Positions 25,628-28,152 of a DNA stretch of 64,000 bases are shown here, in pieces (within the stretch, counting starts at the first letter, position 1; every line of letters starts with the position of its first letter). The notes below the pieces were generated by a model. The model was not told the DNA's origin. It saw only the letters and a program-made list of their open reading frames with translations, and did no database searches. This DNA comes from Escherichia phage vB_Eco_OMNI12: sequence record OL362041.1; one strand, given 5' to 3'. The position numbers and the translations under genes were made by a program.

Positions 25628-25658
25628 GAAAATAAAAAAGGACTCCCGAAGGAGTCCT
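25628..25658 (-). terminator. Rho-independent terminator
   Basis: AGGACTCC-TTCG-GGAGTCCT on the - strand followed by TTTTTTATTTT. Confidence 0.65.
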
Positions 25659-25662
25659 CAAC

Positions 25663-25839
25663 TTATGCTTTCTGCTTACCAAAACGAGAAGCATCATCTC
25701 GAAGAACCGCACGTGCTCGGCGCATGATCTTCTCAACAGTTTGATTGATACGAGAGTTCGACCCACGCTTGTAGCCAGCGCGTTTAGAATCACCAACTTT
25801 CTTTTCAACTGCTTTCTTTGCTTTAGCTTGTTTTGCCAT
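25663..25839 (-). CDS. Small highly basic protein (58 aa from internal ATG)
   Basis: MAKQAKAKKAVEKK...; Lys/Arg-rich. Confidence 0.45.
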   Translation of the reverse strand: MAKQAKAKKAVEKKVGDSKRAGYKRGSNSRINQTVEKIMRRARAVLRDDASRFGKQKA

Positions 25840-26237
25840 TATAAATTCTCTTTTAAATGAAAATGCAGGACTTATTGGCATTGCCTGCGCAAGCCCTCAA
25901 GGGGAACATAGGTTTTTTGATATTTAACGACCAGGATAACCATAAACCCGTCATCATACCTTATAGCTCTTATCTGTTGCACACCGTTAGCTTAAAGGTT
26001 CCGGGTTCGATTTCTCGAGGATAAGATATATACTGATGGATATATAGGCCTTGAGGCGTACTCCCGATTGGCCATCACCTCGGGGTAGCATGCACTTGCC
26101 GCTATAAGAATAACATTCAAGAGGTACACCGTAAAACTGCCGGGGTCTTAAAACTATAATGATTCGCAAATCATTAATCAGACAGTTCGACGGCTCCTCG
26201 TTTTAACTTCACACTAAGGCAGTGACTCTCCAATAAA

Positions 26238-26486
26238 TTACTTCAGTGTTACCACAAAGTGACGAACTGCTTTTCGTGCAGCAGAAGCCAGAGGCTTAGC
26301 ATATTTAAGTTCATCTTTTTCCTGAAGCTCAGCAGCTAATGCAGTTTGAGCAGGATTCAGATGTTTGAAATAACGCAGGATTTCAAGAGCTTCGGCTTCA
26401 ACATCAATAGATGCGCCATAGTTTTCGTGACCATTATTCCATGCGTTTCGTTGCAGTTCAAGAGCGTGTTGTAATTGTTTAATCAT
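26238..26486 (-). CDS. 82 aa protein adjacent to gene 31; possibly rIII (lysis inhibition accessory)
   Basis: Size and position next to gene 31; the assignment rests on map position only. Confidence 0.4.
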   Translation of the reverse strand: MIKQLQHALELQRNAWNNGHENYGASIDVEAEALEILRYFKHLNPAQTALAAELQEKDELKYAKPLASAARKAVRHFVVTLK

Positions 26487-26633: not shown

Positions 26634-26969
26634 TCACTTATAAAGACATGGAATAGCTTTATAGTGACAGGTAACGAATTTTTGTTTAATTTCTTTTGGC
26701 TGCTTAAGACCCAGAGCTACAAAAGGGTGTGGAACGTTTCGAATTTGACCAACTGGAAGAGAAGTCAAATCACCAACTTCACAGAAACCTTCAGGAACAT
26801 CAGGACCGACAGAGTGAACTACACACAGTTCAGGAACTTCACCTTGAACACGTTTACCGATAATAAGTCCTGATTCTGTAACTTCTTCATCACCGGCTTG
26901 TGCAGGTTCAGAAACTAAAATAACATATTCACCGACAGCACGAATTGGTAGCTGTTGTACTTCAGACAT
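26634..26969 (-). CDS. gp31: Co-chaperonin gp31 (GroES functional analogue)
   Basis: 111 aa; [19 protein letters not shown]... recognised as gp31. Confidence 0.9.
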
Positions 26970-27334: not shown

Positions 27335-27571
27335 TTATTTACCTATTACAGTTTTAATATGAGTTGTTCCACGTTCTTTAAGAGTGGAAAGTAATTTTTG
27401 GCATTTTTCTAAATCAGATTTCCAACTATGTGGTCTATCAATACAAACCCAGTTTGACTTATAATACTGCTTCCATTTAGAGAAAAAATACTTCTTATAC
27501 TCTACAGCAAATGAAATGTTCTCATTGGAATAAGAACTAATTGCTGTGAGCTGTACCAAACGAAATTTCAT
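27335..27571 (-). CDS. Hypothetical protein (31.2 position)
   Basis: 78 aa ORF. Confidence 0.5.
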   Translation of the reverse strand: MKFRLVQLTAISSYSNENISFAVEYKKYFFSKWKQYYKSNWVCIDRPHSWKSDLEKCQKLLSTLKERGTTHIKTVIGK

Positions 27572-28152
27572 TATTCACCACAGAATTCGTTGATATTTTC
27601 CCAGTTTAACTTATTTAAGTTTTTCTTAGGAACATTAAACACTTCAATACCTGCATTTCGCAGAATATCATCCCAGCCAGGTTTATTTTTATCGTATGTT
27701 TCACAATAAACCAGCTTTTTAATTCCAGATTGAGCTATTGCTTTTGCACAATCTGGGCAAGGAGAAAGTGTTACATACATAGTAGCACCTTCAATTGAAG
27801 AACCGTTTCGTGCAGCAAACAAAATCGCATTTAGTTCAGCATGAATTTCATTTTTAGACGACCATTCAGAGTGCGCGCTACGATGTTCTTTCGCCAATAC
27901 AAAACGATCAGTTGAACCAAATGATACACATTCAGGCTTATGACCTTGAATGATAGTATGTTTAGGTTTATTCAGCAACCAACCTTGCTCAGCAGCATAA
28001 TCACAACAGTTCACACCACCTGCAGGTGAACCATTATATCCAGTAGAAATAATACGTCCATTCTTTTCAATTACTGCTCCTACTTTCCAGGAGCAACATT
28101 TTGATTCTTGTGATACTAAATATGCAATTTGAAGTACTGTACTCGCTTTCAT
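27571..28152 (-). CDS. cd: dCMP deaminase
   Basis: 193 aa; zinc-binding HAELNA...PCPDC deaminase motifs. Confidence 0.9.
   Translation of the reverse strand: MKASTVLQIAYLVSQESKCCSWKVGAVIEKNGRIISTGYNGSPAGGVNCCDYAAEQGWLLNKPKHTIIQGHKPECVSFGSTDRFVLAKEHRSAHSEWSSKNEIHAELNAILFAARNGSSIEGATMYVTLSPCPDCAKAIAQSGIKKLVYCETYDKNKPGWDDILRNAGIEVFNVPKKNLNKLNWENINEFCGE

Follow-up and report, generated by a model that had tools for sequence, protein, structure and literature searches.

A candidate family of structured RNAs in the spacer between rIII and gene 30.9 of T4-like phages

Why would a T4-like phage keep 398 bp of DNA, GC-rich in places and devoid of any credible gene, between two small genes? The question is raised by Escherichia phage vB_Eco_OMNI12 (sequence record OL362041.1), of which a stretch of 64,000 nucleotides, hereafter the window, was analysed. 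The window comes from a Tequatrovirus, that is, a T4-like phage, and its local genes are all on the minus strand. The spacer in question (25840-26237) runs from rIII to gene 30.9. A first-pass annotation, made from the letters of the window alone, had noticed the gap, some GC-rich strings and a hairpin, and had proposed a structured small RNA, a regulatory or processing region, or the scar of a mobile element. Comparison with relatives gives an answer to the first part of the question, what the sequence is. Covariation shows positions 25960-26108 to be a member of an uncatalogued family of putative structured RNAs, about 150 nt long, in Tevenvirinae of Enterobacterales. The second part, what this RNA would be for, is answered below with graded confidence.

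That the gap has no credible open reading frame (ORF) was borne out. It contains only short ones; on the gene strand these include a 60-aa ORF with a TTG start and a 45-aa ORF with a GTG start, and none is credible across the gap. Over the element, stop codons appear in the six frames of nearly every homologue (one to five per frame in 13 representative homologues, a single open frame in phage PG7 being the sole exception), and 1-nt indels are found there in phage Cronus and in locus L026. The GC-rich strings that had first drawn attention, CCTCGGGGTAGCATGCACTTGCCGC at 26078-26102 and CTGCCGGGGTC at 26137-26147, are both present, in a segment (26000-26149) with a local GC content of 0.50-0.52, as against 0.29-0.40 in most 100-bp intervals between 23000 and 29000. 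The GC-rich part is not diffuse. Alignment with T4, suggested at the time as a check, resolves it into a discrete block of 153 bp (25958-26110) that is absent from T4, inserted between flanks which are about 99% identical in the two phages. The spacer between 30.9 and rIII is accordingly shorter in T4 (244 bp) and holds no gene, so that the HNH gene which had been suspected there is not found. Over 941 bp around the site, Yersinia phage PYPS2T and many Escherichia phages match the window with 100% identity.

How widespread is this block? A search made with it returned 407 phage records, at 80-100% identity, and in phages whose hosts include Klebsiella, Enterobacter, Citrobacter and Erwinia a part of about 135 nt retains 80-96% identity. 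Carriers include phages of E. coli, Klebsiella, Enterobacter, Citrobacter, Yersinia and Erwinia. They belong to at least five genera of Tevenvirinae, the loci examined being those of Tequatrovirus, Moonvirus, Karamvirus, Jiaodavirus and Roskildevirus. The position is constant: in all annotated loci examined the element occupies the rIII-30.9 spacer and has the orientation of the genes, and when loci were retrieved via gp30.9 it was present in 19 of the 39, each time upstream of 30.9 and on the same strand. Pattern scans of IMG/VR and of metagenomes recovered it from T4-like contigs only. The covariance model of the family, R1, gives the window's element 188 bits and finds a single copy of it in the window. 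Among 5,426 E. coli genomes, BLAST found no match to the element at E <= 1, and plasmids gave merely 30-nt chance matches. One candidate outside phages had to be discarded: the sole two-anchor pattern match in 596 Gb of bacterial genomes (L040:3411-3524, in a metagenome-assembled genome of Acidobacteriota) lies inside a 368-aa ORF and forms none of the helices, and we estimate that about 0.1 match of this kind is expected by chance. Between genera, the element keeps 76-94% identity, versus mostly 59-77% for the DNA of rIII, 30.9 and gene 31. Decay or chance is excluded as an explanation because the element is conserved more strongly than the neighbouring genes.

What, then, is being conserved? 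A structure of eight helices was derived by hand from minus-strand alignments and examined over 25 distinct sequences aligned to R1 (an earlier set comprised 23). The proposed pairs are formed in 96.4% of 1172 cells, while 29-42% are formed with the partners slid, and compensatory, that is double-sided, changes are seen at 27 of the 47 pairs. With the 23-sequence set, 95.8% of the cells were paired and compensatory changes affected 25 of 44 pairs. None of 500 shuffles matched the real data on any of five measures. In the core helices there are 17 G-U cells and no A-C cell, and this is why the RNA strand must be the minus strand, the direction of transcription. Among the options that had been listed, the structured RNA is thus the one that gained substance, for the GC-rich core: its eight helices, the kissing-loop pseudoknot among them, covary, and the G-U pairs set its strand. 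It is possible that it accumulates as a separate small RNA, as had been imagined.

The predicted fold (Table 1) is built on a four-way junction, a perfect one since P1, P1b, P3 and P4 abut without linker nucleotides, and on an inner three-way junction of P4, P5 and P6. P1 closes the whole. Pairing reaches 88-100% in its five inner pairs, where AU, GC, UA and CG replace one another (GC/GC, AC/GU and UC/GA are examples), and only about 50% in its three outer ones; other members have AUAAAC/GUUUAU, AAUC/GAUU or ACAC/GUGU at this place. In P2, 98% of the cells are paired and double-sided changes affect seven of the ten pairs, with variants as diverse as CCCAA/UUGGG, CCUGA/UCAGG, CUCUA/UAGAG, CGGAU/AUCCG and GACAC/GUG(C)UC. 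The kissing helix between loops L2 and L3 is paired in 100% of the cells in the 25 sequences; three of its six pairs covary, the variants being CGAUGG/CCAUCG, UGAUGG/CCAUCA, CAAUGA/UCAUUG and CUAUGG/CCAUAG. P3 changes in the same way (UAUACA/UGUAUA, UACACA/UGUGUA, UAUUCA/UGAAUA, GCGUA/UACGU). The three covarying pairs of P4 come from L024 and L026 (UCAUC/GAUGA) and from L025 and L057 (UUCUAUC/GAUAGAA). The stem of P5 appears as CCGA/UCGG, CUGA/UCAG, UCGA/UCGA, CAGA/UCUG or UAGA/UCUA, capped by loops that are mostly of the GNRA type (GAAA, GUAA), sometimes UAAA or UAAU, and that are GNRA-like on the minus strand only. P1b and P6 rest on one sequence each, because only L057, the most divergent member (103 bits with R1), supplies their compensatory changes.

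While the helices vary, a number of unpaired nucleotides hardly do. They are located in L6 (GAACC...GCUAA), in J6/4 (UGUGCAACA) and in the internal loop formed by AAGUGCAU and CUCAAG. L6, the segment of about 15 nt enclosed by P6, has the conserved form GAACC-UUUAAG-GCUAA with a variable centre, into which locus L025 brings a hairpin insertion, AGCCUAUGGCC. Nowhere is the element more conserved than in L6 and J6/4, and the two might constitute a binding core. More generally, the functional core would be the inner junction with the internal loop, and not the kissing scaffold. The dimensions of the model lend themselves to a folded-back P2: the 10 bp of P2 are about as long as the 3 bp of P1b followed by the 6 bp of P3, so that coaxial stacking of P1b and P3, with a sharp turn at the internal loop, would place L2 on L3. 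J1b/2 may be the turn that allows P2 to fold back. Lysine and SAM-I aptamers use the same fold-back design.

Table 1. Features of the rIII-30.9 locus in the window, and spacers of relatives that carry the alternative cassette. Positions are those of the window unless a locus handle precedes them.
Feature	Position	Strand	Basis or remarks
Structured RNA element, 149 nt, P1 5' strand to P1 3' strand	25960..26108	-	153-bp insertion relative to T4; 407 records; R1; covariation
P1, closing stem, 5' strand CUUAUAGC	26101..26108	-	pairs with GCUAUAAG at 25960-25967
P1b, 5' strand GGC	26098..26100	-	pairs with GCC at 26047-26049; invariant except in L057 (GGU/ACC, compensatory)
J1b/2, AAGUGCAU, 5' side of the internal loop between P1b and P2	26090..26097	-	columns nearly invariant; opposite side CUCAAG at 26050-26055
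P2 hairpin, 10 bp	26056..26089	-	5' strand GCUACCCCGA at 26080-26089; L2 at 26068-26079; 3' strand UCGGGAGUACGC at 26056-26067, two bulges
Kissing loop, 6 bp, L2 UGAUGG	26072..26077	-	pairs with L3 CCAUCA at 26034-26039
P3 hairpin UAUAUA/UAUAUA, 6 bp, 8-nt loop L3	26027..26046	-	100% paired; 3 pairs covary
P4, 5' strand UCUUAUC	26020..26026	-	pairs with GAUAAGA at 25968-25974; 100% paired; encloses P5
P5 hairpin UCGA-GAAA-UCGA	26007..26018	-	100% paired
P6, CCG (26002-26004) with CGG (25984-25986)	25984..26004	-	invariant except in L057 (CCA/UGG, compensatory)
J6/4, UGUGCAACA, single-stranded, inner three-way junction	25975..25983	-	columns almost invariant
Gene 30.9 homologue, 58 aa, basic; downstream gene	25663..25839	-	T4 annotation; PHROG phrog_1427
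rIII, 82 aa, lysis-inhibition accessory protein; upstream gene	26238..26486	-	PHROG phrog_1457, E = 4.7e-44; T4 annotation
Gene 31	26634..26969	-	matches T4 annotation
cd	27571..28152	-	matches T4 annotation
Late promoter TATAAATA, canonical T4 type, between gene 31 and rIII	26633->26626	-	promoter motif
Strong intrinsic terminator just past 30.9; 9-bp stem, UUCG loop, U-tract	25659..25638	-	terminator scan
Upstream spacer common to T4, T2 and T6 (~99% identity)	26111..26237	-	alignments
Downstream spacer common to T4; small hairpin modules and 30.9 ribosome-binding region	25840..25959	-	cross-genus alignment, pattern search
Module GUAUGAUG-hairpin-CGUUAAAUAU	25923-25958	-	conserved across Tevenvirinae genera and T4; compensatory stem changes
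Hairpin CCCCUUGAGGG, then CUUGCG	25894-25904	-	conserved; compensatory changes (Cronus GCC/GGC)
Hairpin GCAGG...CCUGC, then AUUUUCAUUU	25865-25888	-	cross-genus alignment
T2 spacer	L083:11348-11635		alternative cassette carrier
T6 spacer	L082:9499-9786		alternative cassette carrier
Spacer of a JS98-like contig	L066:1230-1505		alternative cassette carrier

T4 does without this RNA, and it is not alone. At the very same junction (26110/25958 in the window), T2 and T6 carry a different insert of about 44-50 nt, TACTATCATGCGTCAGAAAAGTGTTATCTGTGTAAGTCTTGGTG; in all three phages the spacer is gene-free, with a length of 244-288 bp. The JS98-like contig also has the 44-bp-type insert, and JS98 proper has the 153-bp block. 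To judge from these alignments, the site is a hotspot with three alleles: empty (T4), 44 bp (T2 and T6) and 153 bp (the window). The element is therefore accessory, since T4 lacks it and T2 and T6 have something else at the same point. Perhaps the TACTATCATGCGTCAGAAAAGTGTTATCTGTGTAAGTCTTGGTG cassette is another small RNA module. In phage CC31 (L063), a stretch related to it is found nearer to 30.9. In T2 and T6, the first bases of the cassette provide the upstream TTTACG with a -10 box that fits the consensus, TACTAT.

How do these alleles move? Enterobacter phage PG7 (L006) and Aeromonas phage PS49 (L004) are 95.7% identical in rIII and 96.9% in gene 31, and only 84.5% in the element. This incongruence between element and flanks points to cassette exchange by recombination. 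The junction of the cassette coincides with the -10 box of a promoter-like sequence, TTTACG-N17-TATTCT, which with the hairpin before it resembles the promoter-early stem-loop (PeSL) composites considered at the end of this text; such a composite, placed exactly there, plausibly explains the hotspot.

The remainder of the spacer is made up, mosaic-like, of small hairpin modules that are conserved and that T4 has too. On the rIII side, the hairpin with an 8-bp stem that had been noted in the first-pass annotation is indeed found, at 26157-26176 (stem TAATGATT/AATCATTA, loop CGCA). It is located outside the conserved RNA, in the flank shared with T4, and after it come UAGUUUU and TTTACG-N17-TATTCT (26111-26135), the latter ending at the cassette junction. 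On the other side, the place of the GUAUGAUG-hairpin module relative to the RNA element depends on the lineage: on the 3' side in most genera, on the 5' side in Jiaodavirus-type loci (Mineola, L024, L026). This module always holds an AUG, and the mini-ORFs that start there, where translated, have 1-34 codons and are frameshifted in T2; in the window, a 34-aa ORF with an ATG start covers 25853..25957, and its T2 counterpart is frameshifted. In every genus examined, 30.9 is preceded by an equivalent series: a hairpin, a U-rich stretch, and then a U-rich segment able to pair with the Shine-Dalgarno sequence of that gene. This suggests control of 30.9 at termination or translation, which would be independent of the RNA element. 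A regulatory or processing region, another of the original options, is thus possible, in a spacer with a terminator-like hairpin, a PeSL-like promoter/stem-loop composite and other conserved hairpins. The neighbouring gaps are larger than the 0-60 bp first reported: 110 bp separate 30.8 from 30.9, and 147 bp rIII from gene 31. In this context, the terminator scan retains as strong only the terminator after 30.9.

Could the element be a known RNA in disguise? Against the 4227 covariance models of Rfam 15, among which are those for riboswitches, ribozymes, pRNA, RNase P, tmRNA and sRNAs, no match was obtained inside 25960-26108 at E <= 10, with a query of either 2 kb or 176 nt, and none at E <= 1 with the divergent homologues L057, L054, L003 and L005. 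The weak sub-threshold matches to Atu_C8 and Phe_leader correspond to the terminator after 30.9, and those to small nucleolar RNAs to the string AUGAUGA only. A tRNA or tmRNA was discarded: ARAGORN predicts no gene in the whole window, and the T-arm-like GGTTCGATT belongs to the plus strand, which by the G-U test is not the RNA strand. Kinship with rnaC and rnaD of T4 was discarded as well, for the sequences are unrelated and R1 finds nothing in that region. More tempting was the RNA of RNase P (CR-II/CR-III). Matched by eye, strings GUGCAACAGA, present in all members, and GCGGUAAGAGC, in L057, are those of E. coli M1 RNA, and further short strings are identical to it (L081:417-793, rnpB), namely GAACCCGG, CAAGGCC and CGAUGGCC, likenesses that are without statistical support and not structurally equivalent. 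This identity was rejected because GAUAAG is helical here (in the covarying P4), the order of the motifs is reversed, and neither BLAST against E. coli nor any model gives a match. A likeness to helix 27 of 16S rRNA failed similarly: no E. coli BLAST match, no model match, and the matching nucleotides are helical in the element.

As for a promoter of its own, only weak candidates were found, since the AT-rich P1 mimics -10 boxes; a start within P1 would moreover conflict with the covariation of P1, because the 5' strand of that stem would be lost. In the literature, which was also searched with literal sequence strings, no account of the element was found, the comparison excluding the supplements of a catalogue from 2023 that lists over 10,000 viral RNA candidates (PMC10690425). 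Within Rfam 15 and the searchable literature, then, this predicted RNA represents a new family.

How might such an RNA act? It would be part of the rIII-30.9 transcript, produced by read-through and by initiation at the late promoter that precedes rIII. Co-transcription with both genes is proposed because there is a late promoter upstream and a strong terminator only past 30.9, and because the element, which in Moonvirus, Karamvirus and Roskildevirus starts no more than about 25 nt past the rIII stop codon, has no conserved promoter to itself there. The RNA itself would be the acting form. Its kissing-loop scaffold would present the invariant junction core to one conserved partner, a macromolecule of the host or of the phage, or a small molecule, and the outcome would be an accessory benefit, such as host takeover or counter-defence, regardless of the neighbouring genes. 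It would work as a non-coding RNA, probably acting in trans or processed. Whether it is a self-contained aptamer-like module, an autonomous RNA rather than a classical riboswitch, we hold to be about an even bet. Three features favour autonomy: flanks and module order vary by lineage; the cassette is exchanged independently of its neighbours; and T4, T2 and T6 retain 30.9 and the local control hairpins without the element. The sequences adjacent to P1, too, differ between genera. A bolder reading, put forward tentatively and with somewhat less than even confidence, is that of a new class of functional phage RNA with a complex tertiary fold, either a novel riboswitch or aptamer, or a decoy or sponge acting in trans on a conserved host factor or signalling molecule, and carried by T4-like phages of Enterobacterales as an exchangeable accessory cassette.

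Several observations weigh against the autonomous module. Folding of the single sequence is no better than that of shuffled ones (z = -1.39, other folds giving -0.98 and -0.75), so that the case rests on covariation, as thermodynamics alone would not flag the element. Many of the 25 sequences are closely related, and the independent compensatory events number roughly 20 by eye. Then there is the matter of place. The element is always upstream of 30.9, at 105-180 nt and in the same orientation, and between the two every genus has a U-rich stretch preceded by a hairpin, and a ribosome-binding site able to pair upstream. This arrangement fits a regulator acting in cis; and in several lineages (JS98, L021, Merlin, PG7, PS49) the 3' strand of P1 overlaps a conserved UAUGAUG, which could be a switch. 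These last facts make the main rival of the autonomous module: a riboswitch-like or protein-binding leader, an aptamer in the 5' untranslated region of 30.9, in which P1 would control termination or translation of 30.9 or of the AUGAUG mini-ORF. The architecture would suit it, in that P1 varies and covaries, nucleotides of the junction are invariant, and a loop-loop contact clamps the periphery. We nevertheless think it rather unlikely. An expression platform does not appear to be conserved, the sequence next to P1 varies, and in Jiaodavirus-type loci the GUAUGAUG module is upstream of the element. T4, T2 and T6 keep 30.9 and the local hairpins in its absence. The constant neighbourhood is weak evidence, because gene order is conserved in all T4-like phages. 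Finally, no riboswitch family of Rfam 15 is matched, and 30.9 offers no clue to a ligand.

The place of the element between two cistrons, close behind rIII in three genera, would also agree with a processing signal that cuts the rIII-30.9 transcript, with a stabiliser of the 3' end of rIII mRNA, or with a self-cleaving ribozyme, and its compact fold, invariant internal loop and four-way junction with interacting adjacent arms are, from general knowledge, broadly reminiscent of the hairpin ribozyme. No ribozyme of Rfam 15 matches, however, be it hammerhead, twister, twister-sister, hatchet, pistol, hairpin or HDV-like, no catalytic core can be recognised (in particular, the element has no CUGANGA...GAAA), a simple hairpin would suffice to protect a 3' end, and T4, T2 and T6 dispense with the element; all this is improbable. 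One might prefer to forgo RNA function altogether and see an element of the DNA, be it a miniature inverted-repeat mobile element, a recombination cassette or a structure of single-stranded DNA. The block does have terminal inverted repeats of 8 bp (CTTATAGC / GCTATAAG), it is present or absent with sharp borders at a three-allele hotspot beside a PeSL-like composite, and the phylogeny of its flanks differs from its own. A mobile element was nonetheless rejected: each genome has a single copy, the locus never varies, comparison with T4 reveals no target-site duplication, and no copy occurs outside the rIII-30.9 spacer, hosts and plasmids included. The end repeats, moreover, vary between genera yet keep pairing, and helices and loop-loop contact covary with G-U pairs on one strand, as expected of RNA and not of sites in duplex DNA, which leaves this explanation a very small chance. 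The scar of a homing-endonuclease gene, to which the first-pass annotation had given some thought, went the same way: no gene occupies the site in any relative examined, T4, T2 and T6 included, no frame is open across homologues, and the sequence is under purifying selection. In T6, mobE lies between nrdA and nrdB.

There remains the idea of a small protein-coding gene, or else of a decayed or chance GC-rich spacer. It can invoke the 60-aa ORF of the window and the short hypothetical coding sequences of GenBank, Mineola_216 and G4500_00226/227. It is hardly credible in view of the stops in nearly every frame of the 13 homologues, of the 1-nt indels in Cronus and L026, and of substitutions that are compensatory in stems and not concentrated at third codon positions; decay or chance, for its part, is at odds with conservation beyond that of the neighbouring genes. 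The annotated coding sequences over the element or the spacer (L005:1504-1653, CPT_Mineola_216; L002:1813-1884 and 1928-2110, G4500_00226/227), none of whose frames is conserved, are probably artefacts of annotation. One GenBank record names features in this region 'lysis inhibition accessory protein'.

What would be gained if an autonomous RNA of a new class were indeed at work here? Apart from tRNAs, introns, rnaC and rnaD, we know of no non-coding RNA with a complex fold in T4-like phages. A four-way junction, a kissing pseudoknot and an invariant core, kept in five genera and in hundreds of phages that are candidates for therapy, make a strong candidate for a new functional class. Should the RNA bind a metabolite, it would be the first RNA of the riboswitch type in the T-even group of coliphages; should its partner be a host factor or an immune signal, this would be an accessory or counter-defence function based on RNA. 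Its absence from T4, T2 and T6 would then explain how it escaped 70 years of T-even genetics. The same phages provide natural, nearly isogenic controls, T4 with an empty site and T2 and T6 with another cassette, to be set beside nearly identical carriers. A more mundane consequence is for annotation, as several GenBank records have spurious hypothetical proteins over the element.

Among known systems, riboswitch aptamers come to mind first. The lysine riboswitch has a kissing loop between L2 and L3, and SAM-I a four-way junction. As far as general knowledge goes, the likeness extends to the size of about 150 nt, to a multi-way junction with invariant unpaired nucleotides, to a P1 that varies while keeping its pairing, and to a long arm broken by a conserved internal loop, the tip of which reaches the loop of a neighbouring hairpin. 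What is expected of an aptamer of this type, a covarying P1 with invariant nucleotides in the junction and the internal loop, is found here. By contrast, the element has no similarity to a riboswitch family of Rfam 15 and no apparent conservation of an expression platform, and it is an accessory cassette absent from close relatives. The pRNA of the phi29 family, again from general knowledge, is another phage-encoded RNA of about 120-170 nt, built on a junction, with complementary loops that covary among relatives. Its loops, however, pair between molecules to form a ring on the portal, and it is essential for packaging, whereas the helix lengths of the element fit a kiss within one molecule, T4, T2 and T6 live without it, and no Rfam match links the two. 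Packaging of the T4 type requires no RNA. Nearer to home, the rnaC and rnaD RNAs of T4 (species 1 and 2) are also small structured T-even RNAs, transcribed in the same direction as their neighbours, but they belong to the tRNA cluster and are present in T4.

PeSLs are of a different nature. They are composites of a simple hairpin and a promoter, with many copies per genome in T4-type phages (Arbiol 2010; Comeau 2014; PMC2839356, PMC4122927). The PST/T4 consensus is TTTACW-N17-TAYWAT, and the composites have been implicated in indel formation (PMC4122927). Like the element, they are short non-coding modules of hyperplastic regions, subject to indels between close relatives. The 5' flank that the window shares with T4, a stem-loop followed by TTTACG-N17-TATTCT, is near the published consensus, and a generic sigma-70 scan did not call this candidate promoter. 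The element itself is unlike a PeSL: a single copy is present, its fold comprises eight covarying helices and a pseudoknot, and a promoter consensus is absent from it. What a PeSL may account for is the exchange of the cassette, and not the role of what is exchanged. At the other end of the scale are ROOL and GOLLD, large structured RNAs of the orphan kind, 500-800 nt in length, linked to phages and prophages, known from other bacterial groups and present in Rfam (PMC12286853). The element, with its 149 nt, is uncatalogued and confined to Tevenvirinae, but it has in common with them a complex fold backed by covariation and an association with phages.

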